Notes: a model not told the origin generated them from the letters alone. 64,000 nt of DNA from Halarcobacter sp. (GCA_963676565.1 OY781089.1:2912001-2976000), one strand, 5' to 3'; positions 1 through 24,467 are shown, numbered from the stretch's first letter. Program-made: numbers and translations.

Positions 1-593
1 CTATTAATATTCATTTTTTCTGCAACATTATTATTAGAATTTTTAAAACTACTAATTATTTCTTCATTTTTTAAATTAATCTCTTTTAATTGAGAATTGT
101 TTCTTTTTTCTATCTCTAAAATATTTTGAAGCTCTTCAATTGTCTTTTCTAATTTATTATATCTTTTACCATTATCGATAGGCTTTATAAAAGGCCTACA
201 TATTTTATCTTCAACCTTATTGTAACTTTTATAAAACCAACAAGCGATAAGATATGCTTCTTCTATTAGCCATAATGTTTCATTAAAATCAATTTTATTC
301 TCCCCATGAACAGCTTTATTCCCTTTAATTCTTATTGCATGAAACTTATCTAAAATTGTTCTATTTATAATCTTTTCAAATTCTTTATTCCTCAATTTAT
401 CCAGTAAATTCCAACTTTTATTACAGTATATATTTAAGTCTCTGTAAATAATGCCAATAGTTAGTTCAATAAAGCAACGAAGTTTCATTAATGAACTTTG
501 TGGATCTGAGTATGTATATAACTCAGCTTCAACCCCTAACTTGGCAAGCTCTGGCCAAGTATCTTTTAAAAAATTAAAATTATTTGTGATCAT
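1..593 (-). CDS. DUF4145-containing protein resembling the N-terminus of EcoKI-like HsdR (runs off left edge)
   Basis: Manual translation: MITNNFNFLKDTWPELAKLGVEAELYTYSDPQSSLMKLRCFIE...FHAIRIKGNKAVH; the R-x2-GN-x-A-x-H motif is typical of DUF4145. Not in the ORF track because it is open-ended. Confidence 0.7.
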   Translation of the reverse strand, partial: MITNNFNFLKDTWPELAKLGVEAELYTYSDPQSSLMKLRCFIELTIGIIYRDLNIYCNKSWNLLDKLRNKEFEKIINRTILDKFHAIRIKGNKAVHGENKIDFNETLWLIEEAYLIACWFYKSYNKVEDKICRPFIKPIDNGKRYNKLEKTIEELQNILEIEKRNNSQLKEINLKNEEIISSFKNSNNNVAEKMNIN

Positions 594-651
594 ATGTGTA
601 ACCATTGTTATTATATATTATCATTGATTATATCTATAGTATTATTATATA

Positions 652-975
652 TTAATGAGATAAGTGATGGTTTTCAACATCGTAACCAAGGTTAATAAGC
701 TCATTGTCATTTCTTGTTCCAAGCTGTCTTTTAAGTGCAGCAATATTATGAATCCACTTTTTACCATCTTTGACAAAGTATCTTCCATTATATGCATCTT
801 CATCATATACAATTTCAAACCCATTTTTTAAAGATAACCTTTCTCTTCTATTAAAGTTTTTAGAATTTGATTTTCTTGCTGAAAGGTAACTACTTCTACT
901 TTCATATTTTACGGCATATGGTATTCCCTCATTTCCCCAAAGTCCATTTTCTCTTCCATAATCATAATCACTCAT
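652..975 (-). CDS. Hypothetical protein (~107 aa)
   Basis: ORF track 652..1026; start reassigned to ATG at 975, which follows an AAAGGA SD and lies downstream of the predicted promoter. Confidence 0.7.
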   Translation of the reverse strand: MSDYDYGRENGLWGNEGIPYAVKYESRSSYLSARKSNSKNFNRRERLSLKNGFEIVYDEDAYNGRYFVKDGKKWIHNIAALKRQLGTRNDNELINLGYDVENHHLSH

Positions 976-1003
976 AACAAATCCTTTCAATTTATATGTT
1001 GTA

Positions 1004-1037
1004 ATTGTAAATATAATTATAGACATATATTGTCTAT
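1004..1037 (-). promoter_or_regulatory. Palindromic operator plus -10 box (site 1)
   Basis: Minus strand reads TAGACAATATATGTCTA-taattatatt-TACAAT (TGTCTA-N10-TAnnnT). Confidence 0.75.
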
Positions 1038-1073
1038 CTAAAATATAATTAATTTATATTCCTAATTTATAAA

Positions 1074-1105
1074 AGACATTATATGTCCAAACTAAAAAGT
1101 AAACT
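1074..1105 (+). promoter_or_regulatory. Palindromic operator plus -10 box (site 2)
   Basis: AGACATTATATGTCCA-aactaaaaag-TAAACT. Confidence 0.7.
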
Positions 1106-1129
1106 TCATAATTGAAATTGGAGAAAAAG

Positions 1130-2206
1130 ATGAAAAATAGAAAAAGAACTTTAGATATTAGAGTTATTCAATCATTACAAAAAAAACTAAATAAAAGTAT
1201 ATTTGCTCAAGACGAAGCTATATCAACATTAGTTGATTATATAACCATTAGTGCAGTTGGATTAAATAATAAAGAAAAACCAATTGGTTCTTTTCTCTTT
1301 ACAGGGCCAACAGGAGTTGGTAAAACAGAACTTGCAAAACAATTAGCAAAAAACCTTAATTTACATTTTCAAAGATTTGATATGAGTGAATATAGTACAG
1401 AAAGAAGTGCTGATAATCTAATAGGTGGTGCTGCTGGATTAGTAGGTTATGATGAAGGTGGACTTCTTACTAATGCAATATTAGACAACCCTGATTGTAT
1501 ATTGTTATTTGATGAAATAGAAAAAGCTGATAAATCAATATTAAATAAATTCTTACAAATTATGGATTATGGAAAACTAACAAGCTCAAAAGGAGAAGAA
1601 GTCTATTTTAATAATACTATCGTCATATTTACATCAAATTTAGGTTCAATAAAAACTACAAGAAGAACTGCTGGCTTTGGTTCTAAAACATATATTGAAA
1701 CAGAAAATGGTTTTGATGAATATCTAAGTCCTGAGTTTATAGGAAGAATAAATCAAATTGTAGAATTTAATCCAACAAATAAAGAGATATCAAAAATGAT
1801 TGTAAAAAAATTTTTTAATCAAATTGAAGAGATGTTAAAAAATAGAAATATTAGTGTTAAAGCTACTGAAGATATCATTAATAAAATCATTGAGAATAGT
1901 AATTCTAATTTAGGGGCAAGAAACTTAGAAAACTTAATCACTCAAAATATAAAAGTTATCATATCTCAAGAACTGCTATTAGGAAAAATTACAAACAATT
2001 CAATAATACTCTTTGATTGGGATAAAGATACTAATGAATACAAATATACTATTGAAAAAGCAGAGGTTTTAATTAAAATCCCTGAAATATTGTATGACAC
2101 TCCATATTTTAAGAATGCTGAAGAAGCACAAAACTATGCAAAACAAAACCCTGGAACAGTAATTATGAGAGATCCAAATACAGATGGATATATTATAAAA
2201 GAATGA
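1130..2206 (+). CDS. Stand-alone ClpA/ClpB C-terminal (D2) AAA+ ATPase
   Basis: Walker A GPTGVGKTELAK, RFDMSEY, pore loop GLVGYDEGG, Walker B LLFDEIEKA, GARNL. No N-domain or D1. GGAG SD precedes ATG at 1130. Confidence 0.85.
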   Translation: MKNRKRTLDIRVIQSLQKKLNKSIFAQDEAISTLVDYITISAVGLNNKEKPIGSFLFTGPTGVGKTELAKQLAKNLNLHFQRFDMSEYSTERSADNLIGGAAGLVGYDEGGLLTNAILDNPDCILLFDEIEKADKSILNKFLQIMDYGKLTSSKGEEVYFNNTIVIFTSNLGSIKTTRRTAGFGSKTYIETENGFDEYLSPEFIGRINQIVEFNPTNKEISKMIVKKFFNQIEEMLKNRNISVKATEDIINKIIENSNSNLGARNLENLITQNIKVIISQELLLGKITNNSIILFDWDKDTNEYKYTIEKAEVLIKIPEILYDTPYFKNAEEAQNYAKQNPGTVIMRDPNTDGYIIKE

Positions 2207-2213
2207 TATTAAA

Positions 2214-2246
2214 TAGACAATATATGTCTAAAACTATCTTTATAAT
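2214..2246 (+). promoter_or_regulatory. Palindromic operator plus -10 box (site 3)
   Basis: TAGACAATATATGTCTA-aaactatctt-TATAAT; the 17-bp operator is identical to site 1. Confidence 0.8.
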
Positions 2247-2277
2247 TACAATATAAAATTTAAAGAAGGAGTTTAAG

Positions 2278-2565
2278 ATGGTAGCAGTAACAACACACGG
2301 GATGGAAAGAATGAATCAAAGAGGTATCACAAAAGAGATGATAGAGATTGTTTTAGAGTATGGTGATTATATTCAGGATAAAGTCATCTTAAACTCAAGA
2401 AAACTAAAAAAACTAATAAAAAAAGTTTCTAAAGATTCAAAGCCAAAACTTTTAAAAGTATTGGATAAAGGTGGATTAGTAGTAGTTTTAAGTGATGATA
2501 ATACAGTAATTACAACATACAATCATAATAGAAAACCATTTCATAAAAGGACTGTAAATGTTTAA
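2278..2565 (+). CDS. DUF4258-like small protein
   Basis: TTHGMERMNQRGIT...VVV...TVITTY pattern; AAGGAG SD. Confidence 0.65.
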   Translation: MVAVTTHGMERMNQRGITKEMIEIVLEYGDYIQDKVILNSRKLKKLIKKVSKDSKPKLLKVLDKGGLVVVLSDDNTVITTYNHNRKPFHKRTVNV

Positions 2566-2787
2566 TGAAGTACAAAAAGAGTTTGACTCAAGTGTGAGAA
2601 GACTTGCAGAAAATAGTCTATTAAAAAAACTAAAAAAGCAAGGTATCAAAGAAGTGATATATCAAATGAACAGTTTGAAGAGTTTTTAGAAGCTGAAATA
2701 GAAATTATAAAAACAGATGGTAAAAAAGTTGGAGCTGGTATGGCTGTTGGTATTGGAATATCAATATTAACTGGTGGATTATTTTAA
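2558..2787 (+). pseudogene. Frameshifted small protein with glycine-rich hydrophobic C-terminus (~76 aa if restored)
   Basis: AAGGA SD + ATG 2558 gives MFNEVQKEFDSSVRRLAENSLLKKLKKQGIK. Adding one A at ~2648-2650 continues RSDISNEQFEEFLEAEIEIIKTDGKKVGAGMAVGIGISILTGGLF* to 2787, filling the operon gap exactly. Confidence 0.7.
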
Positions 2788-2796
2788 AGGACTACT

Positions 2797-3075
2797 ATGA
2801 ATACAAAAGAGTTAGAAAAAATTATAGATGGGACTTCAAGAAAATCAACAGCAGGGAAGGTTTGGACTATTACAAAATTCTTGTCAGTTTGTGGATGGTG
2901 TACTGGCAAATTTATTGTTAAAAATACTCCTACTGTATTAGGTGCTGCATGGGAGATAAAAAGAGAGATAAGTGATTCTATTGTTGAAGAGTATCAAGAG
3001 TATAAGAAAGAACAAAAAAAGCTTGAAATGGAAGAGAGAATAAAAATGCTTACACATAAAGGAGCAAAAAAATGA
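2797..3075 (+). CDS. Hypothetical protein
   Basis: AAGGA SD; translationally coupled to the next ORF. Confidence 0.75.
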   Translation: MNTKELEKIIDGTSRKSTAGKVWTITKFLSVCGWCTGKFIVKNTPTVLGAAWEIKREISDSIVEEYQEYKKEQKKLEMEERIKMLTHKGAKK

Positions 3076-3347
3076 GTGCTGAAAAACTACTTGATGACGC
3101 AATAAAATCTATAAAAGATGGAGCTAATACAGTATCAAACAAATATGAAGAACATATTAGAGAAAAAGCTATAGAAAAAGTAAATGCAAAAATCACTGAA
3201 AAAGGTTTAAATGTTGAACAAATAGAATCAGATGATTATGAAGCAATGATTTCTGATCTCTCAAAAGATATAAAAGAGGACTATGCAAAAAAAGCTTCAC
3301 AAGGTTTATTAGCATTTATTGGTCTTGATATGTTAATTGGATTTTAG
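3072..3347 (+). CDS. Hypothetical protein with hydrophobic C-terminal tail
   Basis: AAGGAG SD, ATGA overlap; resembles the restored 2558-2787 product. Confidence 0.75.
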   Translation: MSAEKLLDDAIKSIKDGANTVSNKYEEHIREKAIEKVNAKITEKGLNVEQIESDDYEAMISDLSKDIKEDYAKKASQGLLAFIGLDMLIGF

Positions 3348-3355
3348 GAGATTAG

Positions 3356-3736
3356 ATGTTAAAACTACTATTTAAAACAACTGCATACTATATCATATGG
3401 CAAAAGTTTAAGAAACAGATTATCTTAGTCTTTTCTTCAATAATACTAATCTCATTTATTGGAATAATCTACGAAGATTTACTTGAAGTAATGAAAGTAA
3501 ATAATAGAGATAGTGTAGGAGTATTGTTATTCTTCAAATGGTTTCTAATTTTTTCTATCATAGGTTTTAATATCTATGTTTTAAGAAAAACAAACATAGA
3601 TCCAAAAGAATTAAACTCCTCAAAACAAAAAGAACCATTTTTTACAAACTACTCAAAAAAAGAGCAAGAGATTCTAAAGAAAGAAGATGAGCTTATAACT
3701 ATTACTGATTTGATTTTAAAGAAGTATGAGAACTAA
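3356..3736 (+). CDS. Hypothetical membrane protein (2 TM)
   Basis: AGGAG SD; two hydrophobic segments. Confidence 0.75.
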   Translation: MLKLLFKTTAYYIIWQKFKKQIILVFSSIILISFIGIIYEDLLEVMKVNNRDSVGVLLFFKWFLIFSIIGFNIYVLRKTNIDPKELNSSKQKEPFFTNYSKKEQEILKKEDELITITDLILKKYEN

Positions 3737-4094
3737 TATGAAAACTATAACTCTAATTGCATTTATTCTATCTCTTTTAACTGCTTGTTCATCTGTAAAA
3801 AAGAATGAAAAATACTATCAAACAAACTTCTGTGAAGATTTAAATGGAAAAATAGAGTATAGATTAAAAGATAAAACAAGAGTAGATTGTCTAACAAATG
3901 ATTTTGCCATAGAAGTTGACTGGGCGAAAAAATGGGCTGAAGCTATTGGACAATCACTTTATTATTCTGAAATGACAAATAAAAAAGCAGCCATAGCTTT
4001 AATAGCCTCTTCAAAAGATAAAAGATTTATAAAAAGAGCAAAGAGATTAAGTGAAAAGTTTGATATTAAAATATTCATTATAGAAAAAGAGTAA
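3726..4094 (+). CDS. Predicted lipoprotein with PD-(D/E)xK-like nuclease fold
   Basis: Signal peptide with lipobox LTAC; RVDCLT...AIEVD...AIGQSLYY resembles D...ExK...QxxxY nuclease motifs. Start may be ATG 3738. Confidence 0.55.
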   Translation: MRTNMKTITLIAFILSLLTACSSVKKNEKYYQTNFCEDLNGKIEYRLKDKTRVDCLTNDFAIEVDWAKKWAEAIGQSLYYSEMTNKKAAIALIASSKDKRFIKRAKRLSEKFDIKIFIIEKE

Positions 4095-4095
4095 G

Positions 4096-5949
4096 ATGAA
4101 AGATAAAAGCCAAAGAGAAATTAGACTATTAAAAATATTCTTACTGTTTTTATTTATCACTTTTTGCTTGATAGCTTTACTGCTATCAACACTTAGCACT
4201 ATAAATAGTGATAGAAAAATCCCACCAATGACTATTTCCAAAAGTGAATTAGCAATAAGAGGAGATGTTTTTAGTAGTGATGATTTTAAAATAACTACTT
4301 CAAAAAAGATTTATAAAGCCTCTATTGATACAAGATATTTAGATACAAATAAAAAAGAGCTGTTTGTAAAACTATTTTCAATATATAGCAATATTCCATA
4401 TCAAAGAATATTAAAAAAAGTAGATAACTCTTTAAAAAAACCCTCAAATTTGGTTCTATCATATAACATAGATTCAAGAACTGCAAAAAATCTAAAAGAG
4501 CTCGGATTTAAACTAAGAAAACTAAATGTGTTTATCGCAAGAAGAGTAAATGGAATAAGAAATCTAAGAGGTCTTAGTATTATTGAAAGTGGAGAAAAAA
4601 GAGTCTATTCATATAAAAACACTTTAACTCCTGCAGTTGGTTATATAAGAAAATTTGAATCAAAAAAAGGAAAAACAAAAGTAAAAGGAATAAAAGGTAT
4701 TGAAAAAAAGTTTGATGGTATTTTAAATGGTAGTAATGATGGTTTACTAAAAGGAAATAGAGATGTTCTTTCATATATTAACTTTGATAAAAACTCCATT
4801 TTAAAACAAAGAGTTGATGGAGCAAATATTCATCTAAATATTCCCCTAAGACTTCAAAAGAACATAGAGATGATTTTAGATATCTATAAAAAGAAATTAA
4901 AAGCAGATGAGATTATAGTTTCTGTTATGGAAAGCTCTTCTGGAAATGTATTAACATTAGCCTCTTCTAATAGATTCAACCCTGAAAAGATTCTAACTAA
5001 AGATATGTCTTCATTAAATGTAAAAGCAGTAGAGTATCCATTTGAGCCAGGATCAGTTATAAAACCTATTTCCATATCGTTAGTTTTAGATAAAAAAAGA
5101 GTTAAAAGCAATAAACTATTTTTAGCCTATAATTTAAAAGGAAAGCCAAATAAAAAAGGAAAGTACCCAAAAGGAAGATATAAAATTGGAAGGTTTTGGA
5201 TTAGAGATGATCATAGATTTAAAAAGCATTATCTAACAATAGATGATATAGTTATATTCTCTTCAAATATTGGAACACTTCAACTTGCACAAAAATTATC
5301 AGGAAAAGAGATGCTTAAGGGTATGCAAAGATTTGGGTTTACTAAAAGAACAGGAATAGAATTACCTTATGAAAAAACAGGAAAGCTTCCCTCTTTAAAA
5401 CAATTATCAGTAGGTGAAAGTAAAAACAAAGATAATGTATATAAAGCAACTGTATCTTATGGACAAGGTATGACTTCTACTTTTATGCAAGTATTAAAAG
5501 CATATACAGTATTTAACAATAAAGGATATATATCAACTCCAAAACTAATCTCTTTTATAGAATCAAATAAAGGAATTTGTGAAGCACCAATTAGTAGTAA
5601 AGAAAGAGTTCTTTCAAAAGAGACTGCAGATGAGATAAAAAGACTTTTAATAAAAACGGTAAATAAAGGAACAGGAAAAGCTGCGAAAATTGAAGGTTTG
5701 GAAATTGGAGGAAAAACAGGAACTGCACAAATAGCAAGAAGAGGTAAATATCAAAAGAAGTATATCTCTTCATTTTTTGGCTTTGCAAATGATAGTAAAA
5801 ACTCATACACCATTGGAGTAACTGTCTTTAATCCAAATTCAAAAGGTAAACATTGGTATCAGTATTATGCTTCTAAATCTGCTGTTCCTGTATTTAAAGA
5901 AGTAGTAAATACTCTTTTAAAGTTTAACTACTTAAACAATAGTAAGTAG
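4096..5949 (+). CDS. ftsI: Class B penicillin-binding protein, FtsI/PBP3-like (island-borne paralogue)
   Basis: N-terminal TM, RGDVFSSD, GIEKKFD, SxxK (EPGSVIKP), SxN (FSSNIG), KTG (GGKTGTAQ). Confidence 0.85.
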   Translation: MKDKSQREIRLLKIFLLFLFITFCLIALLLSTLSTINSDRKIPPMTISKSELAIRGDVFSSDDFKITTSKKIYKASIDTRYLDTNKKELFVKLFSIYSNIPYQRILKKVDNSLKKPSNLVLSYNIDSRTAKNLKELGFKLRKLNVFIARRVNGIRNLRGLSIIESGEKRVYSYKNTLTPAVGYIRKFESKKGKTKVKGIKGIEKKFDGILNGSNDGLLKGNRDVLSYINFDKNSILKQRVDGANIHLNIPLRLQKNIEMILDIYKKKLKADEIIVSVMESSSGNVLTLASSNRFNPEKILTKDMSSLNVKAVEYPFEPGSVIKPISISLVLDKKRVKSNKLFLAYNLKGKPNKKGKYPKGRYKIGRFWIRDDHRFKKHYLTIDDIVIFSSNIGTLQLAQKLSGKEMLKGMQRFGFTKRTGIELPYEKTGKLPSLKQLSVGESKNKDNVYKATVSYGQGMTSTFMQVLKAYTVFNNKGYISTPKLISFIESNKGICEAPISSKERVLSKETADEIKRLLIKTVNKGTGKAAKIEGLEIGGKTGTAQIARRGKYQKKYISSFFGFANDSKNSYTIGVTVFNPNSKGKHWYQYYASKSAVPVFKEVVNTLLKFNYLNNSK

Positions 5950-5979
5950 ACATTATATGACCAAGATAATAAGTAAAAT
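5947..5979 (+). promoter_or_regulatory. Palindromic operator plus -10 box (site 4)
   Basis: TAGACATTATATGACCA-agataataag-TAAAAT. Confidence 0.65.
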
Positions 5980-6003
5980 CTTTTTAAATAAAAGGATTTA
6001 TAT

Positions 6004-6369
6004 ATGAAGTTTACATACCAAGAAGTTAAAGATATTTCAATGTTAATAGAGGCTTTTCAAAAAGAGTACTGGGTACATAGAAGTATGCATGACAAAGATT
6101 ATCCTTTTGAAAACTTATTACCATTAAATTTACTTGATGAAATTATCTATAGATTAAAAGAAGTATCAAATATAAAATCAAAGTATGCAGATTTTATCGA
6201 ACTAAAATCAGATATTGATTTTATTGAAGAGTATTATGAGATAAAGAAATTCCCAAATGTCAATATTTGGTTATCAAATACAAATAGTACTTTAAGAGAG
6301 ACTTTCTCTTCATATATTGAACAAGTAAAAAAAGTAAATCATTATGAAAAGAGTAGAAATGAAAATTAG
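6004..6369 (+). CDS. Hypothetical protein
   Basis: AAAGGA SD; first gene after site 4. Confidence 0.7.
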   Translation: MKFTYQEVKDISMLIEAFQKEYWVHRSMHDKDYPFENLLPLNLLDEIIYRLKEVSNIKSKYADFIELKSDIDFIEEYYEIKKFPNVNIWLSNTNSTLRETFSSYIEQVKKVNHYEKSRNEN

Positions 6370-7099
6370 AATAGCTTTATTTTTAACTATTTTTCTTTTT
6401 AATGTAAATAGCTTTGCAAGTGAATATAGTGACTATATAGTAAAAATACATGTTGGAAAAATTTATAATAGTGAAGAAGAGAGACTATATAGCCAAGGAG
6501 AATTAGTCTATTTAGAAGGTACTGGTTTAATTCTTAATAACAATAAAGTCTTAACATCGGCTAATTTATTAAGAGATTCAAACTGGATTACTATAAATAA
6601 AGAGAACCTACATAAATGGTATAGAGCAAAAATAGTTGAAGTCTCTTATATTACAAACTTAGCTATTTTGGAGATTGAGAATTATGAAATATCAGAAACT
6701 TTAAAACCTATATCTTTTGCAAAAAAAGTAGAAAAAGAAAGTATAGTTTCAGTTGTTGGCTTTGAAGCTGGGAACAATGAACTAACTATTTCCAAAAATC
6801 TTATATCAAGAATTAAAAAAAGTAATAAAAACAACTACAATATAAATTTCCCTGTAATACAGATTGACAGAGACTTAAATCATATTATCAGTGGAGCAGT
6901 TGTTTTAAATCTAAAAAATGAGTTAGTTGGAATTGGTATGCAGCCTTCTGAATATTTTAGTAGTAAAGCTTATATTGTTCCAATAGACTTAATAAGAATA
7001 TTTTTAAATGATTTAAACTACAAGAAGAGAAAAAGAAGAGATTACTTTTTTAAAAGAGAGCAATTTATCAATTTATTTGCAAAAGGAAAAAATATATGA
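6344..7099 (+). CDS. Exported trypsin-like (DegP/HtrA-type) protease domain, catalytically degenerate
   Basis: Signal peptide; GTGLIL..KVLTSANLL (His site is N), TNLAILEI (Asp site is N), IQID..LNHIISGAVV (degenerate GNSGG). Confidence 0.7.
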   Translation: MKRVEMKIRIALFLTIFLFNVNSFASEYSDYIVKIHVGKIYNSEEERLYSQGELVYLEGTGLILNNNKVLTSANLLRDSNWITINKENLHKWYRAKIVEVSYITNLAILEIENYEISETLKPISFAKKVEKESIVSVVGFEAGNNELTISKNLISRIKKSNKNNYNINFPVIQIDRDLNHIISGAVVLNLKNELVGIGMQPSEYFSSKAYIVPIDLIRIFLNDLNYKKRKRRDYFFKREQFINLFAKGKNI

Positions 7100-8670
7100 A
7101 TACTATAAATAAAATAGATTTAAACATAGATAGAAGTGACATAGAACCTATTACTGATGTTATAACAATAAGAGATACAGAACAAAGAGTTTTAAATTAT
7201 ATGATGATTTCTTTAGAAAACTATAACTATATTAATGAAATATTAAAAGATGAAGATTTTACTTTTTTGACACATACAAAGATATTTCAATATTTATTTG
7301 AAGATAATGACCTTCTTCCAAAAGAGACAGTTTATAATAGATTTGAAATAAATGAGTTAGAAAAGTTCATAGATATGTTTGCTCGTCTTTTAGAAGATAA
7401 AGAAAATGTTAAATATACATCTACTCTTAAAATTCTTTCAAAAGAGCCAAGTTCAGATATAAAAAAAGACATAGAGTTTTTAAAACAATACTCATTTGAA
7501 AAGGCTGTTGCATTTAGTGGATTTAAAAGTGATTATGCCGTAATTGAAGTTGCATTTGAAGATTTAAACAGTTTTACAAGTGGTCATTTTTATCAAAATA
7601 GACTTTGTAGTATTTTTACTACAAATATAGAAGATATTCCAGAAGAACTTTGTGATACAGCAATTAATACAATTAAATTTTTAGAACAAATAGATTTAAA
7701 TGATTCTATTTATAGAGCATCATTTTCTCCTGTAGAAATAGAGACAGTTGGTATTACGAAGTTTTATATAGAAAAAAACTATCAATTATTAGAACAAAAA
7801 AGAGAAAAGAAAGAAGCCGCTTTTCAAAAGCTTTTTGATTGGGCAGATAAATATGAATTAGATGAAAAGACCTTTCCAAGAGACATTAATAAACTATTAA
7901 AAATGCAAGAACTTGAAATCAAAAATAAAAACATAAAAGAACTACCTAAAGAGCTTATCTTATTAGAGAGACTTTTTTTACTTGATCTTAGTTTTAATAA
8001 AATCAAAACTATCCCTAAAGAGTTTAAAGAATTTAAGCACTTAAAGTTTTTAAAATTACAATCAAATGAGATAGAAGAAGTACCATCTGAGTTGTTTGAG
8101 ATACAAAGTTTACTTTTTTTAGTTCTAAAGGAAAACAGTATCATATCACTGCCCTCAAATATCTCAAAATTAAGAAACCTAAAGCATTTATGTATATGCC
8201 AAAATAAAATAGAGTTTATTCCAGATGAGATAACTAAATTGAAAAAGCTTGAAGGGTTTTGTATGCATAGAAATAGATTAAGTTCTCTGCCTAATGATAT
8301 AGGTGAACTTATAAATCTTAATACCTTAACTTTTTCAAACAATTATATAGAAGAAATACCTCAAAGTATAATTAGACTTGAAAAGCTTGAGTCTTTAGAG
8401 TTTGAAAACAATAAAATAAATAATATAGATTTACAATTGATACGATTAAATAAACTAAATCAACTTGCACTTGATGATAAACTTCTTTTATCTATTTATG
8501 AACCTATTCGTACTTCAAAAAAGTTTGATACTATAAACTTAGTTGAATCAAAAATCAAAGAAGATTCAAGACCAATAAGAAATCTAAGCTTTAAAATTGA
8601 AACAGAGTCTTGGATAGATGAAATTGATAGAAGAAATAATGGATGTATTGTATTGAAAAAGACTGAGTAA
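7096..8670 (+). CDS. DnaB N-terminal-like domain fused to leucine-rich repeats
   Basis: EQRVLNYMM...ILKDEDFTFLTHTKIF resembles the DnaB NTD; about 8 LRRs of ~23 aa (LxxLxLxxNxIxxLP). Confidence 0.7.
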   Translation: MNTINKIDLNIDRSDIEPITDVITIRDTEQRVLNYMMISLENYNYINEILKDEDFTFLTHTKIFQYLFEDNDLLPKETVYNRFEINELEKFIDMFARLLEDKENVKYTSTLKILSKEPSSDIKKDIEFLKQYSFEKAVAFSGFKSDYAVIEVAFEDLNSFTSGHFYQNRLCSIFTTNIEDIPEELCDTAINTIKFLEQIDLNDSIYRASFSPVEIETVGITKFYIEKNYQLLEQKREKKEAAFQKLFDWADKYELDEKTFPRDINKLLKMQELEIKNKNIKELPKELILLERLFLLDLSFNKIKTIPKEFKEFKHLKFLKLQSNEIEEVPSELFEIQSLLFLVLKENSIISLPSNISKLRNLKHLCICQNKIEFIPDEITKLKKLEGFCMHRNRLSSLPNDIGELINLNTLTFSNNYIEEIPQSIIRLEKLESLEFENNKINNIDLQLIRLNKLNQLALDDKLLLSIYEPIRTSKKFDTINLVESKIKEDSRPIRNLSFKIETESWIDEIDRRNNGCIVLKKTE

Positions 8671-8828
8671 AGGTTCAATTGTTTCTCTTGTCAATCGGGC
8701 TCAATACCCGACCCAAATTTTTCATAGAATTATAAAGAATAGCCTAAAATTAGACATTGTAAGCTTGTGATTCTTTTTTAATTTATCACTAAAACATAAC
8801 AGAATCACAAGTAGAGCAAAAATTGATT

Positions 8829-8950
8829 TTATGCAGCATCATGTTCTTCTCTCAACTTACGTATATCTTTCCACTGACCTTTTCCAAAAACAAAAGGATT
8901 AATAGATATTCTCCAATACCAATTCTTTTAAGTAAGTAATCTAATGTCTC
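8829..8950 (-). pseudogene. Possible RepL-like replication protein remnant
   Basis: Across one frameshift: DYLLKRIGIGEY/INPFVFGKGQWKDIRKLREEHDAA*; family assigned from memory of the NPxxFGKGxWxDI motif. Confidence 0.4.
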
Positions 8951-9290
8951 TTTTACAATATTTATACTAATATTTTTTTAGTGATTTTTGAAAGACTTTC
9001 TTTTTAAGTTAACAAAATATTAGCAGTTTGAAAAAATTAGCCCACTGTGAAATCAAAAAACTTTACAAAATCAAACATATATAATTATTATATTATAAAA
9101 ATGTCCAAACGCAAGCTATTAATTATGTAGTTAAATTTCAAGAACTTCTTTACTTGGAGTTCCATCTCTATATTTTTTATCAGAGGAGCATACAAAGGAA
9201 TTTTATAAAACAGATTATTTAAAGTGTCTTCAATTCCTTTTATGTGACTTGCAAAAGAAAAAGTCCAATCTGTTTCAGTTGATGTAATTG

Positions 9291-12131
9291 TTATCTTTCA
9301 TAAAACTTCTCTACATACCCAACTATTTTATCAAGAACTCTTGGAACTATTTTCTTTCTTTCTAAATATTTAGGTTTTACATTTAAAGTTGCTGCAACAT
9401 CATTTGCTAAAGGTTTTCTTTGCTCATAAATGAATGTATCAATAACCTTTTCAACTTTGTCATTATCTAAATTTTCTTCAACACAAAGTTCATCTAATGC
9501 TTTACCTTTTTCAACATCCCAGAATTTTTCAAACTCTTCTTCTATATCTTCACTATTTTCAATTTTCATCAAGTTATCATTGATGAATCTTTCAATTAGC
9601 TCTCTTTTACTTCTAAGCTGTGGATTATTGTTAAGGATATTACTGATATTTTCTCTTTGTTTAGTTCTAACACCTTCATCTTCTGTCTCTTTATATTGTG
9701 CAAGTAGTTTTAAAATATAACCAACATTGATTTCATCTTTATGGATTAATTCCAGCTCAAAGTCAACATCATCTAAAATAGAAACTTTCTCTGTTCCTTC
9801 TCCATTTCCAGTCGAATGTTTTATCTGTTCATAAAGGTCAAGATATTTAGATTTATAATCTTCAAACATTTGCTCAGTCATTGATAAGTCTGACCATTTG
9901 AAGTCTGTAAATCCTTCTAAAATATTTTTAATTCTCATTAAGTTTCTAAATGCTTTAATAAACTCTAATTTAATATCTTCTCCCATTAAATTATCAATAC
10001 TACTAACACTTGGTACAATAGTGATTAGCTTTATAAATGCTTCATTGAATTTTTTAACATAAACCTCATATGGCTCCATAATGATGATTTCTTTTGCATC
10101 TTTGTTAGAGAACAATGCTATTGCATCATCAGTAGCTTTTTTCAAGTTCCTAAAACAAACTATATTTCCTTGCGATTTTTGTTCGTTCAAGATTCTATTT
10201 GTTCTACTATATGATTGAATTAAACCATGATATTTCAAGTTCTTATCTACATACAATGTGTTTAGTGTTTTACTATCAAATCCAGTTAAGAACATGTTTA
10301 CAACAAGTAAAATATCTACTTCTCTTTGCTTAACTCTTTTTGACATATCATTATAGTAGTTATAAAAGCTCTGAGAATCTTTTGTTGAGTATTTACATCC
10401 AAACATTTTATTGTAGTCTTCAATAAACTCATCAAGCTTTTCTCTACTATGTTTATTGATGTGCTCTTCATCTACATGAGCACCATCAGCTTCATCTAAA
10501 TCAATGATTCCATCAGCATCTTTATCATCTTCATTTGCACTATATGAAAAAATTGTTGCAATTTTTAAATTATGTTTTTTAGATTTAAAAGCTTCATAAT
10601 ATTTAATAAGCATATCTACAGAACTAACACACATCATAGCTGTGAACTCTTTACTATGAGTTTTTCTTCCATGATTAGCAATGATATAGTCAACTATCTT
10701 TTCAAGTCTATCTTGACTTTCAAGAAGCTCTTTTGTATCAATTGCTTCAACTTCAATATCAACATTAGTTGCACTTCCTTCTTTCTCTTTATATCTACCT
10801 ATATATTCAACAGAAAACTTAAGTACATTGTCATCATTAATTGCATCTGTTATCACATAACTATGTAGTTGTTCATCAAATAACTCTTTTGTAGTTCTTT
10901 TTCCCAACTTGTTTCCAGTTGCATTCTCAGCAAAAATTGGAGTACCTGTAAATCCAATCATCTGATTTTTTTCAAAGAATCTTGTAATGTTTAAATGTGT
11001 TTCTCCAAATTGTGACCTATGACACTCATCAAAGATAAAGACAATATGTTTATCTTTTAGTTTTTCCATTGATGATAAATATTGCTTTTTAGAAATTGCT
11101 GTGTTAAGTTTTTGAATAGTTGTAACTATTAATTTTGTATCATTACTAAACTGTTTCACTAATGCTTTTGTATTATCTGTTCCATCAACTGAACCGTCTG
11201 AAAAACTATTAAATTCTTTAGTAGTTTGATAATCTAAATCTTTTCTATCTACTACAAAAACTACTTTATAAACATTAGGAAGCTTCATAAGAATCTGAGC
11301 AGTTTTAAAAGAAGTTAGAGTTTTACCAGAACCTGTTGTGTGCCAAATATATCCATTTTTATTTGTTTCACTAACTCTATTGATAATAGCTTCAACAGCC
11401 CAAAATTGATAAGGTCTTAAAATCATTAATATTTTTGGAACTTCTGCTAAAACTATATATTTACATATCATTTTAGATAAGTGACATCTCTCTAAAAAAG
11501 TTTTTGTAAATTCTTCTAAGTTAGTGATATTTCTATTGGCTTTATCAGCCCAATAGAATGTTTGCTTGAATGATTGTTTTTTATTATTAGCGTAATACTT
11601 GGTATTAACACCATTTGATATAACAAATAGTTGAATATAGTTAAATAGAGCGTTATTAGCACCATAAGAATGTTTTTGGTATCTATTTATTTGATTGAAT
11701 GCTTCTTTTAATTCTAATCCTCTTCTTTTTAGCTCTATTTGAACTAATGGCAGACCATTTATTAAAATCGTAACATCGTATCTGTTTTTATATTTACCTT
11801 CAACAGTCACTTGAGATGTAACTTGAAATAGGTTTTGACACCAATGTTCAGAATCCAAGAACTCAATATATTTTGTAGTGCCATCATCACAAGGAAGAAC
11901 AAATCTATCTCTTAGAATTTTTGACTTTTCAAAGACATTTCCCTTATTTAGATGGTTTAAAACTCTTTTAAATTCTGTATCTGTAATAGTAGTTTTATTA
12001 TGCTTTTCAAGTTGAGATTTTAAGTTTTTTTCTAAATCTTTATCATCTTTAATAACTACTCTTTGATATTGATTCTGTTCAAGTTGCTTAATTAAGTTTT
12101 CTTCTAAGATTGCTTCTGATTGTTTACTCAT
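9291..12131 (-). CDS. hsdR: Type I restriction enzyme R subunit
   Basis: RYDVTILINGLPLVQIELK nuclease motif, WHTTGSGKT, DECHR, FTGTP, MFLTGFD, QSYSRTNR. Confidence 0.96.
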   Translation of the reverse strand: MSKQSEAILEENLIKQLEQNQYQRVVIKDDKDLEKNLKSQLEKHNKTTITDTEFKRVLNHLNKGNVFEKSKILRDRFVLPCDDGTTKYIEFLDSEHWCQNLFQVTSQVTVEGKYKNRYDVTILINGLPLVQIELKRRGLELKEAFNQINRYQKHSYGANNALFNYIQLFVISNGVNTKYYANNKKQSFKQTFYWADKANRNITNLEEFTKTFLERCHLSKMICKYIVLAEVPKILMILRPYQFWAVEAIINRVSETNKNGYIWHTTGSGKTLTSFKTAQILMKLPNVYKVVFVVDRKDLDYQTTKEFNSFSDGSVDGTDNTKALVKQFSNDTKLIVTTIQKLNTAISKKQYLSSMEKLKDKHIVFIFDECHRSQFGETHLNITRFFEKNQMIGFTGTPIFAENATGNKLGKRTTKELFDEQLHSYVITDAINDDNVLKFSVEYIGRYKEKEGSATNVDIEVEAIDTKELLESQDRLEKIVDYIIANHGRKTHSKEFTAMMCVSSVDMLIKYYEAFKSKKHNLKIATIFSYSANEDDKDADGIIDLDEADGAHVDEEHINKHSREKLDEFIEDYNKMFGCKYSTKDSQSFYNYYNDMSKRVKQREVDILLVVNMFLTGFDSKTLNTLYVDKNLKYHGLIQSYSRTNRILNEQKSQGNIVCFRNLKKATDDAIALFSNKDAKEIIIMEPYEVYVKKFNEAFIKLITIVPSVSSIDNLMGEDIKLEFIKAFRNLMRIKNILEGFTDFKWSDLSMTEQMFEDYKSKYLDLYEQIKHSTGNGEGTEKVSILDDVDFELELIHKDEINVGYILKLLAQYKETEDEGVRTKQRENISNILNNNPQLRSKRELIERFINDNLMKIENSEDIEEEFEKFWDVEKGKALDELCVEENLDNDKVEKVIDTFIYEQRKPLANDVAATLNVKPKYLERKKIVPRVLDKIVGYVEKFYER

Positions 12132-12141
12132 TTCACTCTCT

Positions 12142-14487
12142 TTATAGATTGACTTTTTTGATGGTTAATTTTTGCTCAGATATTTCTGATTTAAAAAAAT
12201 TAATTTTTTGTTTTTGATTTCTTTCTAATTCAGAAATTATTGGTTTTAGAATAGCTTCATTCTTGAATTTTAATCCAAAAGTTATAGATTCAATTTGTAA
12301 TGCAATTATATTTTTTTCAATAGCTTCATTAATGTCAAAAGTATAAGATATTTTTTGTTTTTCCCCATAATGTAATAATCTCACTTCTTTTTCATATTCC
12401 CAATCTTCTGATTTTACAGTCCAATATTCTATAATACTATCAAAAATTTCTTTTTCATCTAAATTTGTATTTTTATATTTTACTTCATCTTTCCCAACAT
12501 AGTTAGGTAAATATAAAAATTTATAGCCGACACATATACCTGTATGTTCTTGTGTATAATGTGACCACATTAATTTATTGTCATTTATTTGTGACAAAGA
12601 ACACAATTTAAAATTATTTTTATTTAAACTTAAATCCTTAAATTGTTTTTCTAAAGATTCAGATGCAACATCAAAAGGGTCATTTAACTGATTAGGGTTT
12701 GCAAAGTATAAATAGTTCTCTGTCAAACTTGATAATGCATTAATGGAAAAAGTTTGATATTTATATAGAGTTCTTGAAAAGTAAGTTGTTCTGGTGTCTT
12801 TTTGATATGAGTTATAAAATATAAAGTCTTTTATACTTTTATCAAACAATGTTTTTTTATCCTCTTTAGCAGTTTTTATTTTTACTAATAAAAGTTCAGC
12901 TTCTCCATCCAGATTCACAAGATATTTTTCTGCTAAATTAATTGACTTCTCAAGATATTTAATAGCTTTTTTGTATTTTTTATTTTTTTTCTTTGATTTT
13001 TTATAATATAGCTTCCCAAGTTCTAAATAATATTTTGGATTTTCATTTTCACTTTTTATTCGATTTTTAATGATAGTAATTCTTTTATTTAGTGAAATTG
13101 AATCATTAAAAGCTGATAAATAATAAAGTTTTCTATCCTCAGTAAGAATAATATTAAGTTTTTTGGATTGAATGTAAATTTCTTTAATTTTTTTTATATA
13201 TAGTTTATGAAGTTTCTTGCGATATGAACCAGTTAATTTTGTAAACTCATTATTATATTCAATATTTAATTTTTTGATATATTTTTGCATTTCATGATAC
13301 GAGGATAAGATTGTATAACTAAGTCCAAAAACATCATCCAATTCAAAATCTTTTTCATCAATTACTCTTTGATATGATTTCTTGATATAATTTCGTGTTA
13401 TTATATAGTTATTTAAAATATATAACAAATAAATATCTTTTTTTAATTCTTTATAATGATTACTAAGCTCATTAAGAATGCCACTAAGATGATTTATACT
13501 ATCTGTATATTTTTTATCAATATTTAACAGCTTTGCTTCATAAAATACTTTATGTTCTTTATGAATTTTAGACTTTTCTTTGTTTAGTATATATTTAACT
13601 TCATTGTACCCATTAAGTTTAAATAACTTTTCAATACCATCTTGCCAATTTCCTGAATGAAAATTACTATAATAATCTTTATAACATTGTATTGCTTTTT
13701 CAGTTTTATTTGTTTCTTCATAGCATTGACCTAATATAAAAAAGTCATTACTATTTTTATTATAATTATTTTTATAATATTCTATTGCTTTATCATATTT
13801 TTTTAGTTTAAAACAAACTTCCCCATAAGAAATATTATTAGTTTTAGATTTTCTTTCTTCATTATGATTAAAATATTTATATAGCCACTTGTAATCTTTT
13901 TTTTGTATATAGTAGTATAAATCACTTTGTTCTGTAGTCAATTTATATTGTTTTTTGAGTTGCTGAGAATCATCTAAGAATTCTTCTTTAAACCAAAGTT
14001 TATTAAGAAATCTTTGTACAGTATTGGTATCTAATGTATTTTTACGCAAAAAATCAAAACATTCTTTATTTTTTTTATCAATGAAAAGTATATAGAATTG
14101 TGCTTCTAAATTATTTTGATTTTCTTTTACTGATTTATTTAGTAGATGTTTAGATATATCATATTTATTAAACCATGTATAATGTTCTAAAGTTCTAAAG
14201 TTATTCTCTAAAAATAAATATAATTGTAAGTTAGTAACTGATTTGTCATTTTGGTTAATTTGTAATATCTGATTAAAATACTTATTTTTATTTTCTTGTA
14301 TCATTTTTATGGTAGTACGTTTTTTATGACTACTAACCCAACTCATTAAATCATATAAATAATAATAGAAAAACAAATATTCTTTATCTTCTAAAAAATC
14401 AGTTTTTAATTTTTGAATGTTTATTTGTGCTTCATAAAAATTTGATTCATACAAATTGTCAATAATCATTTTTTTTAATTCTTGCAT
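12142..14487 (-). CDS. TPR-repeat protein with C-terminal DUF2971 domain
   Basis: TPR-like helices (YGEVCFKLKKYDKAIEYY; LGQCYEETNKTEKAIQCY); C-terminal LYKY...LNDPFD...LMWSHY...GICV...WEYEKEVR. Confidence 0.8.
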   Translation of the reverse strand: MQELKKMIIDNLYESNFYEAQINIQKLKTDFLEDKEYLFFYYYLYDLMSWVSSHKKRTTIKMIQENKNKYFNQILQINQNDKSVTNLQLYLFLENNFRTLEHYTWFNKYDISKHLLNKSVKENQNNLEAQFYILFIDKKNKECFDFLRKNTLDTNTVQRFLNKLWFKEEFLDDSQQLKKQYKLTTEQSDLYYYIQKKDYKWLYKYFNHNEERKSKTNNISYGEVCFKLKKYDKAIEYYKNNYNKNSNDFFILGQCYEETNKTEKAIQCYKDYYSNFHSGNWQDGIEKLFKLNGYNEVKYILNKEKSKIHKEHKVFYEAKLLNIDKKYTDSINHLSGILNELSNHYKELKKDIYLLYILNNYIITRNYIKKSYQRVIDEKDFELDDVFGLSYTILSSYHEMQKYIKKLNIEYNNEFTKLTGSYRKKLHKLYIKKIKEIYIQSKKLNIILTEDRKLYYLSAFNDSISLNKRITIIKNRIKSENENPKYYLELGKLYYKKSKKKNKKYKKAIKYLEKSINLAEKYLVNLDGEAELLLVKIKTAKEDKKTLFDKSIKDFIFYNSYQKDTRTTYFSRTLYKYQTFSINALSSLTENYLYFANPNQLNDPFDVASESLEKQFKDLSLNKNNFKLCSLSQINDNKLMWSHYTQEHTGICVGYKFLYLPNYVGKDEVKYKNTNLDEKEIFDSIIEYWTVKSEDWEYEKEVRLLHYGEKQKISYTFDINEAIEKNIIALQIESITFGLKFKNEAILKPIISELERNQKQKINFFKSEISEQKLTIKKVNL

Positions 14488-14508
14488 AATATCTCTTTTT
14501 TATAATTT

Positions 14509-15723
14509 TTAAACAAACATCTGTTGTAAAAGAGCTTTTTTAAACTCTTTTGTTTTTTCTAATTCTGTTTTTGTAACTTCAATTTTTTTGTCAATTGAAG
14601 AAAGAAAGTTAGCTATACTTTTTTGTTCTTCAAGACAAGGTAAATCCCATTTCAATTTTAAAAAGTCTTTTTTACTCATAACCCTATTTCTTCCAGCCCC
14701 TCCAGGAGAAATTAAATCTAACATAACCTTAAGTTTTTTTTGAATAATTTGATATTTAAAATAATGAGAGTTAGTTATCTTATTTTCAAACGTATATGTT
14801 GGAAATCGATGGGATACTAAGCCTTTGTTATCTTCTTTTTTTACGATAGCAATTGCACCTTCCCATGCAAATGTGATGTTTACAATTAAATCATTCTCTT
14901 TTACAACATATAGTTTATCCATTACAATTTTATCTGGTTCAGAATTAGGCTTTTGAAATGTTCCTTTACAATGACTTTTTACACCTATTGCTAAATAGGG
15001 TTCTTTTGGTTTTTCTATTTCTCTGAAAGTAGGAATTAAAAAATCAATAAATGAATATTCTTTCCACTCTGGAAAGTCATTTCCATTCTTATCTTTAAAA
15101 CGAATTTCATGAGAAAAAAATTTTTGCATTACACTTTGTTTATATTTATCTAAAAGTTTTTCTTTTTTTGTAAGTTGCTCTATCTTTGTGTCAACTAAAG
15201 TTAAAAAAGAAGCTATTTTAATTTGTTCATTTTTTGAAGGAATATGAATTGAATCAATCAAAACTTTTTGATTATTAATTTTCATGTCATTTTTTGCACC
15301 CTTTTGAACCAAAGGCCTTAAATACTTATTTAGATTATCAGATAGAGAAAAATAGTGATCTAAAAAATTTGAGTCAATGCTATCTTTACATCTATATACT
15401 GCATATAAAGTAGATACAATTCCTTCATGTTTTTTATTTGCCTTAATAATTCCATATGGAGCTGTAGCCAAAGGACTTTTAGTGTAGACAATATCGTTTA
15501 ATCTTACTATTGGATAATTAGATACGGATTTCCCGGCATAAGACCTGCCTAAATGTTCTATTTGATTTACTAAACCAAATTGTTGAGATACTGAAAGTAC
15601 TTCATTTTTAGAAAAAATATTTTTAAGGTTTTTTTCTTTATGTTCAAATAACAATTGAGATAATTTTTGACTTACCCAGTCTTTACTAAATTCTTTAAAT
15701 CTCAATTTAGGTACATTACTCAT
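14509..15723 (-). CDS. hsdS: Type I R-M specificity subunit
   Basis: VPKLRFKEF, two TRDs, repeated P..EQ..IA.FL...D conserved regions, ends LLQQMFV. Confidence 0.95.
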   Translation of the reverse strand: MSNVPKLRFKEFSKDWVSQKLSQLLFEHKEKNLKNIFSKNEVLSVSQQFGLVNQIEHLGRSYAGKSVSNYPIVRLNDIVYTKSPLATAPYGIIKANKKHEGIVSTLYAVYRCKDSIDSNFLDHYFSLSDNLNKYLRPLVQKGAKNDMKINNQKVLIDSIHIPSKNEQIKIASFLTLVDTKIEQLTKKEKLLDKYKQSVMQKFFSHEIRFKDKNGNDFPEWKEYSFIDFLIPTFREIEKPKEPYLAIGVKSHCKGTFQKPNSEPDKIVMDKLYVVKENDLIVNITFAWEGAIAIVKKEDNKGLVSHRFPTYTFENKITNSHYFKYQIIQKKLKVMLDLISPGGAGRNRVMSKKDFLKLKWDLPCLEEQKSIANFLSSIDKKIEVTKTELEKTKEFKKALLQQMFV

Positions 15724-15732
15724 GATAATCTC

Positions 15733-22897: not shown

Positions 22898-23821
22898 TCA
22901 TTGTTTTTTTAAATATTCATCTATATTCTTTTTAATCTCTTTTTTTAACTCATCTGGTTCAATAACAGATATATATGGCATATATCTTTGAATTGTTGGA
23001 ATAATTTCCATCAAATCAGTTATTGTCACTTCTATTTCAAGAGAACCATCTTTATGTTTTTTTAAAATTCTTTGGGCAGATGATAATGGTTTTCTTATAA
23101 AATATCTTGCAACATTTCTATAAATATATAGTTGAACATTAATAAGCTCATTTTCTGGTTTATAATAAGCTGTTATTGCTTTATCAAAACCTTTTACTTT
23201 CTTTTTATCAAATTGAAAGTTTGAATGAAGAACTTCAATTTCTTTAATTGTATTAAGATGAAATGTTTTAATTTTGTCATCTTTAGGTTCATAAATAATT
23301 AGATACCAATATCCTTCAAGATTTAAAATCTTCAAAGGAAAGATTTCTCTGTGCTTATTGTTATAAAAACATTTGATTATATTTTTTGCCTCAATAGCAT
23401 TTCTAATTTGAATTATTTCTTCTTTGAATTCATCAAATTTTTCTACCGAGGATTGTTGATAAATGTTATTAGACAATTCATCTTCAAATTTATGAAATAG
23501 AGCATCAGTCTTTTCAAATAAATCCTCATCTGTATGTTTGTCTTTTGATTTAAATTTTAAGATAGAAATAACAGCTAATTCATCTGCATTAAAAAGTGTT
23601 TTTGTTAAAAAATTGTTAGATGCTTTATAAACTTTTTCAGAATAATTGTATTTTATCTTTTCATCTAAAAATAATGGAATAATGTAATCTTTAAAATCAG
23701 TTTGAATGATTTTTTTAGAAACTCCAAATCTTTCAGCAACATCAGGTGTAGATAAAGAATAACCTTTTGAAAGTAGTGTAAGAATGGATGATAATCTCTT
23801 TATTCTATTTGTTAAGTTCAT
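22898..23821 (-). CDS. WYL-domain transcriptional regulator (wHTH-WYL-WCX)
   Basis: N-terminal HTH (DVAERFGVSKKIIQTD), GYWYLI motif, KTFHLNTI, C-terminal VIEPDELK. Confidence 0.92.
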   Translation of the reverse strand: MNLTNRIKRLSSILTLLSKGYSLSTPDVAERFGVSKKIIQTDFKDYIIPLFLDEKIKYNYSEKVYKASNNFLTKTLFNADELAVISILKFKSKDKHTDEDLFEKTDALFHKFEDELSNNIYQQSSVEKFDEFKEEIIQIRNAIEAKNIIKCFYNNKHREIFPLKILNLEGYWYLIIYEPKDDKIKTFHLNTIKEIEVLHSNFQFDKKKVKGFDKAITAYYKPENELINVQLYIYRNVARYFIRKPLSSAQRILKKHKDGSLEIEVTITDLMEIIPTIQRYMPYISVIEPDELKKEIKKNIDEYLKKQ

Positions 23822-23951
23822 TTAAATATAATATAACAAAACCATTAATTTATTACTTAAAAAAGTTATTTTAAATCAATCACATTTATTTTTTTTGTGC
23901 CTAATTTACTAAATTACTTAATTAGGTACTTCACTATGAATAAAATAATTT

Positions 23952-24397: not shown

Positions 24398-24467
24398 CAA
24401 ATAACTTACTTGAGCTTTATATTCTTTGAACTATCTTGATATTTCATCTTCTTAACTCTTTACCTTT

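Follow-up and report, generated by a model that had tools for sequence, protein, structure and literature searches.

Seven box-bearing promoters at a tRNA-associated island

We describe here a set of promoter-like sites in Halarcobacter sp., lying within and just ahead of a 64,000-nucleotide stretch of DNA (GCA_963676565.1 OY781089.1:2912001-2976000; 'the window', in which positions are counted from the first letter). The sites look like the promoters of one regulon, controlled by a WYL-domain protein and carried on a mobile genomic island, much as an earlier note on this DNA had proposed. The genome was laid out whole (3.34 Mb, 28.4% G+C), and the 20 kb preceding the window is referred to as L001, with its own numbering.

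The right end of the island is marked by a gene for a tyrosine integrase (Phage_integrase; 31021-32343, plus strand) and by a 26-bp direct repeat (32602-32627) that falls within the 3' end of a tRNA-Ser gene (32605-32695, minus strand); a second exact copy of this repeat sits at L001 147-172, 19,853 bp ahead of the window start and 52.4 kb away. Together, the integrase and the repeat pair define a 52.4-kb stretch which has the make-up of an integrative genomic island at a tRNA gene, and which is predicted to be mobile.

Each of the sites consists of a 17-mer palindromic 'box', a spacer of 10 bp (N10) and a -10 hexamer of the form TAnnnT. Four lie in the window, at exactly the places where the earlier note had put them, and a further three in L001 (scores, where given, are those of the matrix described below):

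Promoter 1, minus strand: box TAGACAATATATGTCTA at 1020-1036, N10 at 1010-1019, -10 TACAAT at 1004-1009; top score of the matrix, 32.2 bits
Promoter 2, plus strand: box AAGACATTATATGTCCA at 1073-1089, N10, -10 TAAACT at 1100-1105; 22.0 bits
Promoter 3, plus strand: box TAGACAATATATGTCTA at 2214-2230, N10, -10 TATAAT at 2241-2246; 30.9 bits
Promoter 4, plus strand: box TAGACATTATATGACCA at 5947-5963, N10, -10 TAAAAT at 5974-5979; 20.8 bits
Site 5, minus strand: box at L001 9642-9658, -10 TATAAT, in the same N10 layout; found at 0-1 mismatch
Site 6, minus strand: box at L001 13736-13752, -10 TATACT; found in a looser scan, as TAGACAAAATGTGACCT-N10-TATACT
Site 7, minus strand: box at L001 15547-15563, -10 TAGAAT, in the same N10 layout; found at 0-1 mismatch

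In the window's four sites the box reads (T/A)AGACA-N5-TG(T/A)C(T/C)A, followed by ten unrelated bases and then TAnnnT; the right half of the promoter 4 box carries GAC rather than GTC. Its 14-base core, AGACANTATATGTC, is matched four times in the window at 0-1 mismatch, not at all at two mismatches and 35 times at three, the last of these being the level expected of shuffled sequence (39 matches in total, where shuffles average 30.5). Each site is followed at 20-35 nt by a start codon that has its ribosome-binding site, with the exception of the one that lies some 450 nt ahead of a gene for a WYL protein of 439 amino acids (aa).

Genome-wide, there are 11 oriented matches (counted per strand) at 0-1 mismatch, of which six lie in or adjoining the window, and all six of these carry N10 + TAnnnT. 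None of the other five does so in its listed orientation; the TAnnnT found on the opposite strand at 2714683 is a chance coincidence, and the background frequency of TAnnnT at any single spacing is about 3.7% (28/748 oriented sites). A loose scan for GACA-N5-TGTC with up to one mismatch returned 374 sites (748 oriented) and no genome-wide peak in spacing, and the bare GAC-N7-GTC motif is not significant in the window (5 matches against 2.25 expected; 5 was reached by 6 of 100 shuffles). It takes the stricter motif or a matrix to tell the sites apart from noise.

When the whole genome is scored with a matrix of 33 columns, trained only on 19 sites of other genomes, the seven highest scores are those of the island sites (20.8-32.2 bits). 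Two borderline matches follow at 20.4 bits, one antisense within a 1003-aa gene and the other with a poor right half-site, neither of which we count; the next score is 12.7, and the matrix scan yields no box outside the island. N10 + TAnnnT is present in 7/7 of the island sites, all of which lie within 16 kb (20.6 kb with the units that they head). What is conserved between sites is the two half-sites, the spacing and the -10; the N10 spacers and the flanks are unrelated in sequence, and the sites are therefore not recent duplicates.

Some 23 genes, grouped into seven units, lie behind the seven promoters, which makes a larger regulon than the 12 or so cargo genes that had been suggested before:

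Promoter 1, minus strand: 107-aa protein (975-652); 911-aa TOTE helicase (from 605, running past the window start; DUF4145, superfamily 1 (SF1) and TBP-TOTE domains); 770-aa protein (DUF7017/S1CSD-TOTE; PDC-M16B)
Promoter 2, plus strand, 1130..2206: ClpB-like AAA+ ATPase, 358 aa (AAA_2 and ClpB_D2-small; matches PADLOC PDC-M37B and DolB)
Promoter 3, plus strand, 2278..5949: DUF4258 protein (2278-2565); small tail-anchored or membrane proteins (2558-4094); 617-aa penicillin-binding protein (PBP) transpeptidase (4096-5949)
Promoter 4, plus strand, 6004..8670: 121-aa protein; trypsin-like peptidase (6344-7099); 524-aa leucine-rich repeat (LRR) protein (7096-8670)
Upstream of the window: 43-aa basic peptide and Zorya type II, as three adjacent genes (PADLOC ZorA2 8.8e-191, ZorB2 7.1e-98, ZorE2 4.3e-124)
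Upstream of the window: 90-aa protein, MYG1-like protein and SSB
Upstream of the window, minus strand: the 439-aa WYL gene, after a leader of about 450 nt

Promoter 3 (2214..2246) begins 8 nt past the stop codon of the ClpB-like gene, the box of promoter 4 (at 5947) overlaps that of the PBP gene, and another box lies 2 nt after the stop codon of the 439-aa WYL gene; with boxes abutting preceding stop codons in this way, the units look like cassettes, each with its own promoter.

Several features of the cargo and its surroundings deserve mention in their own right. The SSB gene (L001 8052-8486, minus strand) is the last in its box-driven unit, and ssb is also a member of the DdaA regulon of the Moraxellaceae; if single-stranded DNA (ssDNA) is the inducer, SSB could act as a negative feedback. 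The PBP at 4096-5949, which closes its unit, is full-length, with both dimerisation and transpeptidase domains, and is odd cargo for a defence island; the regulon of the Caulobacter activator DriD contains a cell-division inhibitor. Within the same unit, at 2558-2797, a 43-aa open reading frame stops early, with a shifted frame running into a C-terminal membrane anchor that resembles those of the next two small proteins, probably reflecting a frameshift near an A-run.

Elsewhere on the island, three tandem metallophosphoesterase paralogues of 275-278 aa each (L001 2501-4998, minus strand) lie near the left end, after which come an RNase H-like (RVT_3) gene and a split ATPase_2/DUF234 gene, and a type I restriction-modification operon (HsdR, HsdS and HsdM) occupies 9291-17295, with a 781-aa TPR/DUF2971 (PDC-S31-like) gene between hsdR and hsdS. 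The interval 24400-24950 is non-coding, richer in G+C than its surroundings and full of short inverted repeats; an Rfam search of it returned no match, and it could be an unclassified RNA.

A 439-aa WYL protein and its relatives

The 439-aa protein is encoded just upstream of the window, within the island, at G000:C1:2905757-2907073 (minus strand; L001 13754-15073). Its gene sits inside the regulon, with one site upstream of it and the other immediately past its stop codon. The protein carries Pfam WYL and WCX domains, the PADLOC WYL model covering residues 99-424, with a winged helix-turn-helix (wHTH) starting at around residue 96; it also has an N-terminal extension of about 95 aa and an insertion in the wHTH, both of which are missing from all 20 aligned relatives. 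The promoter ahead of the gene is the sole one of the seven to have an extended -10 (TGATAGAAT). Between this box and the gene (L001 15080-15410, minus strand, 4.6-4.9 kb before the window) runs an open frame of about 110 codons that has no ATG, GTG or TTG start, and which is probably a decayed gene inside the leader.

Relatives of the protein are present in 51/401 genomes of the order, and the boxes go with them. In Sulfurimonas, where the relatives are 45-46% identical, box + N10 + TATAAT stands directly before or after the WYL gene. Across 29 loci of the family drawn from the 401 genomes (106.6 kb), exact GAC-N7-GTC occurs 44 times (oriented), 23 of these having TAnnnT exactly 12 nt after the GTC, while every other spacing from 0 to 25 yields 0-10 sites; the layout is seen in 16/29 loci. 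Among members at 30-37% identity the half-sites are shifted (CGGACA, ACGACA, TTGACA) and the spacing is kept. In 12/22 loci the WYL gene has a box no more than 200-300 bp away (six upstream on the same strand, nine divergent).

The genes that follow the same promoter type in relatives are varied, and include those for a ClpB-like ATPase (at L041, from another family), an LRR protein (L037), an SF1 helicase, DarT, Cas10, RT-Cas1, a conflict-type histidine kinase and RtcB ligases in pairs. A search of the order with the ClpB-like ATPase was swamped by housekeeping ClpA-type genes (382/401 genomes) and left three short-form relatives only, of which two have a box (L086 and L088), the third (L085) being a contig end without one. 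Family members some 33-36% identical occur at L047, L048 and L050, one of them in a genome of the same genus as the window's organism; the boxes at these loci are of the CGGACA type and precede one RtcB ligase gene or two. A relative 50% identical to the C-terminal half of the 439-aa protein is encoded on a contig (L003) that bears the label of a Candidatus Gracilibacteria metagenome-assembled genome, which is either a transfer between phyla or a binning error.

A search of plasmids with the 439-aa protein gave 11 records, all below 36% identity and each covering only part of the protein. When viral contigs were scanned for box + N10 + TAnnnT, 44 isolated matches came up; as not one of them has a relative of the protein within 3 kb, these are treated as chance. 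Two further WYL genes in the genome itself (2369631-2370479 and 2332795-2333652) have no such box nearby. Overall, we consider it very likely that the 439-aa protein is the cognate regulator of the boxes.

Geometry, structure and the direction of control

Taking transcription to start 7 nt past the -10, we place the box at about -39 to -23, in the stretch that a -35 element would normally occupy, and the TGTCyA of its proximal half at -28 to -23. Among 61 distinct sites collected from this genome and its relatives, an 'A' is most frequent 7-8 nt past the -10, in line with a start site, and the TG of an extended -10 is found in only three. Mismatched triplets are more frequent in the proximal half-site than in the distal one (20 against 7), an asymmetry that goes with promoter direction. 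The 61-site consensus points to an operator with a GAC-N7-GTC core and an AT-rich centre, as for DriD. This operator keeps one distance to the -10 and covers the -35 position of promoters that lack a -35 element. The distance is invariant across proteins that are only 30-50% identical, with diverged boxes and unrelated spacers.

Comparable arrangements have been described for two WYL activators. DriD binds ATACGAC(X)7GTCGTAT (PMC13004042), in keeping with the GAC-N7-GTC-core palindrome that the earlier note ascribed to it; its sites overlap the -35 position at a single fixed distance to the -10, in promoters that lack a -35. The promoter oligonucleotides in the Methods of the same paper, including a version with an added TTGACA, read as GAC-N7-GTC + 12 nt + hexamer, and the box-to-(-10) distance found here equals the DriD distance so derived (+/-1 bp). 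PafBC promoters have a canonical -10 and a -26 element with a conserved GTC that is read by PafB, in the region -23 to -28, and no -35 (PMC8635444). The formula TGTCGG-N10-TAnnnT given previously for PafBC agrees with the published motif, though the passages drawn on here do not give it in that exact form. Both DriD and PafBC respond to ssDNA, as had been said.

Sequence and fold comparisons place the 439-aa protein with these same regulators. A phmmer search with it finds DriD chains as the top PDB matches, from E 6.9e-5, and a profile of the family (21 members) set against solved structures finds DriD (2.6e-11), PafC (5e-5) and PafBC (2.4e-3), with no BrxR or CapW at E <= 0.01. An AlphaFold model of the protein (mean predicted local distance difference test score, pLDDT, 74.9) aligns full-length with DriD chains, and Foldseek ranks DriD (2e-13) and PafBC (2e-10) ahead of CapW (1e-6) and BrxR (2e-5). 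The protein thus has the domain order of the DriD/PafBC-type activators (wHTH, helical bundle, WYL, WCX) and, among solved WYL regulators, is closer to them than to the repressors CapW and BrxR.

Individual residues can also be followed. DriD Arg41, which with Arg37 reads the two guanines (PMC10853764), has its equivalent in R160, invariant in the alignment of 21 sequences, albeit in the wHTH part of the profile alignment, which scores weakly. The ssDNA contacts Y168 and R207 of DriD align with the invariant Y277 and R317, and Y192 with the invariant Y302 only if the printed alignment is hand-shifted by one residue; an aromatic residue stands in for Y240, and conservation of R288 is partial. 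RWHVR, a motif of the CapW/BrxR-type repressors (PMC11662680), is absent, all 21 sequences having N-F-Y-L/V at that position.

The sequence shows that the sites are there, that they are confined to the island, that their geometry is fixed and that they accompany one protein family; from this we infer that these are operator-promoter modules of a DriD-type, ligand-dependent WYL activator, the 439-aa protein, a reading to which, taken as a whole, we would give a probability of roughly 0.6; that the protein activates rather than represses is, on its own, probable. The protein is laid out as N-terminal extension, wHTH, three-helix bundle, WYL and WCX, and we suggest that as a dimer it would occupy the 17-bp box tAGACA-N5-TGTCyA over about -39 to -23, with the proximal half-site at -28 to -23. 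Binding of a ligand by the WYL domain, most likely ssDNA arising from phage attack or DNA damage, would then allow the protein to assist the housekeeping RNA polymerase in initiating at promoters with no element but the -10. In this way the seven promoters could co-induce some 23 genes: the regulator's own, Zorya II, TOTE/PDC-M16, the 90-aa/MYG1-like/SSB unit, the ClpB-like ATPase, the DUF4258-to-PBP unit and the trypsin-LRR unit.

A number of points weigh against this reading. A search of sequencing runs for positions 1-9000 of the window turned up none with RNA. The DriD distance is our own reading of printed oligonucleotides and could be 1 bp off, and the AlphaFold model is poor at residues 1-90 and 190-220. 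Where DriD has Arg37, the TAGACA subfamily has Lys and only the CGGACA/ACGACA subfamily has Arg, and several of the DriD ssDNA contacts (S172, R178 and R204) are not conserved in the family. The family loci are related, some being near-duplicates, and the counts taken over them overstate their independence. G299, a genome that is 98% complete in 120 contigs, carries a box (with TACAAT at N10) some 570 bp ahead of its ClpB-like gene (the L086 locus above), and no member of the 439-aa family is detectable in it. Promoters of the Campylobacterota, moreover, generally lack a -35, and several of those here have a perfect TATAAT, so that they might fire unaided, with the box, which overlaps the polymerase footprint, serving to block the polymerase. 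In addition, BrxR and CapW, which are the defence-island WYL regulators characterised to date, are ssDNA-released repressors (PMC11662680, PMC9122601).

These last points are the case for repression, in which the same protein on the same boxes would block polymerase over the -35 region until released by ssDNA, in the manner of CapW/BrxR. We regard this as unlikely, if the most serious of the alternatives: among solved structures the protein is nearest to the activators DriD and PafBC, NFYL or NFYV stands in the family in place of RWHVR, and a distance to the -10 that does not change across such divergent proteins is not something that steric blocking requires. An extended -10, as noted above, is present in only three of the 61 sites. 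The boxes, at 17 bp and always upstream of the -10, are also unlike the long inverted repeats (about 20 bp or more) that lie at or downstream of the -10 in the BrxR/CapW type; the BrxR operator has 11-bp arms and sits downstream of the -10 (PMC9122601).

A different candidate for the regulator, and the one named in the earlier note, is a 307-aa protein of the same island (22898-23821, minus strand), which has HTH_11, WYL and WCX domains. It is 29% identical to the 439-aa protein, over the WCX domain alone, and a search for solved structures found no significant relative. Its gene lies 17 kb from the nearest box, beside that for an Hhe-type helicase-nuclease (17407-22827, 1806 aa), and is flanked by a different palindrome: upstream is a long inverted repeat (23897-23929) with 16-nt arms and CCTAATTAAGTA half-sites, and a further half-site of the CCTAATTAAGTA type stands between its stop codon and the Hhe gene. 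As a control, 29 loci of the 307-aa family (98.3 kb) contain 22 oriented sites, of which two have the GAC-N7-GTC + 12 + TAnnnT layout, both in one locus; this is 1/29 loci against 16/29 for the 439-aa family, and the 307-aa family is present in 141/401 genomes, far above the 51/401 of the family associated with the boxes. That it regulates the boxes is most improbable, and the attribution in the earlier note is not supported; the protein and its CCTAATTAAGTA repeats look like a separate, BrxR-style local circuit, and we do not count it in the seven-promoter regulon. We also think it very improbable that the boxes are not operators at all, being instead copies of a duplicated promoter cassette or the sites of some other factor, such as a recombinase acting at cassette borders. 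Their position against preceding stop codons, marking module boundaries, and the different cargo that the same box type precedes in different genomes would suit this idea; against it, conservation is confined to half-sites, spacing and -10, the GAC/GTC core fits the recognition-helix arginines of DriD, one of which is invariant here, and the boxes track one regulator family.

To our knowledge, the switching-on of defence islands is poorly understood, and those WYL regulators of islands that have been studied to date each repress one adjacent system. A DriD-type activator, as we favour for the 439-aa protein, would differ in coordinating seven promoters and at least five unrelated systems, Zorya II and TOTE included, from within a mobile element. 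WYL activators with such a geometry are already known (DriD and PafBC), as is a WYL activator of restriction-modification and CRISPR genes (DdaA; PMC12392091); our literature search returned no account of a WYL activator that is borne by an island and governs defence systems, nor of one in Campylobacterota. With the fixed GTC-12 nt-(-10) geometry found in Caulobacter, mycobacteria and many Campylobacterales, a family-wide rule is suggested, and such a rule could allow the regulons of WYL activators to be predicted directly from genome sequence.

We would go further only tentatively, and speculate that the island carries a portable 'alarm' circuit, with its own ssDNA-sensing, DriD-type activator and a 'plug-in' module (box, 10 bp and -10) after each preceding stop codon, an idea that we hold at rather less than even odds. 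Were it true, Zorya II, TOTE, the ClpB-like ATPase, the trypsin-LRR pair and the PBP cluster would be silent until attack and then fire together, and any newly acquired gene that gained a box would join the regulon; the defence island would be controlled by activation, the opposite logic to that of BrxR and CapW. The same type of module heads DarT, Cas10, RT-Cas1, RtcB and histidine-kinase conflict genes in other Campylobacterales.

Comparison with known WYL regulators

DriD, the Caulobacter crescentus WYL activator of an SOS-independent DNA damage response, is the best match to the 439-aa protein in both sequence and fold, with the same homodimer-type layout of wHTH, three-helix bundle, WYL and WCX. 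The likeness extends to the pseudo-palindrome, with its core, AT-rich centre and fixed place over the -35 position, and to the conserved Arg41, Y168 and R207, along with Y192 once the alignment is shifted. The two differ in that identity is only 15-20%, the half-site here is tAGACA and that of DriD ATACGAC, the equivalent of Arg37 is Lys, and the 439-aa protein has its additional N-terminal extension and wHTH insertion; further, the regulator here is encoded by an island, and its boxes, confined to that island in this genome, head defence systems.

PafBC, the mycobacterial WYL activator that works by sigma adaptation, is second-best in both fold and profile matches, and the proximal half-site of the boxes falls where its GTC element lies (-23 to -28). 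PafBC, however, is heterodimeric, recognises a single element that is not palindromic and has some 150 chromosomal genes under its control, whereas here there is a palindrome of two half-sites and, presumably, a homodimer.

DdaA, a WYL activator that acts in the Moraxellaceae on genes for defence and for the response to DNA damage, controls ssb, restriction-modification and CRISPR-Cas genes through CGWCA-N5-TGWCG (PMC12392091), a palindrome with the same GAC-N7-GTC frame as the boxes. DdaA is chromosomal and global, and replaces SOS, whereas the 439-aa regulator is island-borne and local; the DdaA motif is set some 50 bp ahead of the start site, a position that its authors contrast with PafBC, whereas the geometry here is that of DriD and PafBC.

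BrxR and CapW, whose genes neighbour BREX, CBASS and other defence systems, share with the 439-aa protein the wHTH-WYL-WCX plan, a place in defence islands and, presumably, a response to ssDNA, which for the two of them is documented (PMC11662680, PMC9122601). The 307-aa protein is by context the nearer to this type, with a long inverted repeat upstream of its own gene, yet it has YWYL instead of RWHVR. BrxR and CapW are repressors that carry the RWHVR motif and act at longer inverted repeats placed at or after the -10, and their fold matches to the 439-aa model are the weaker ones, which sets them apart from a protein whose boxes lie over the -35 position and whose nearest solved relatives are DriD and PafBC.

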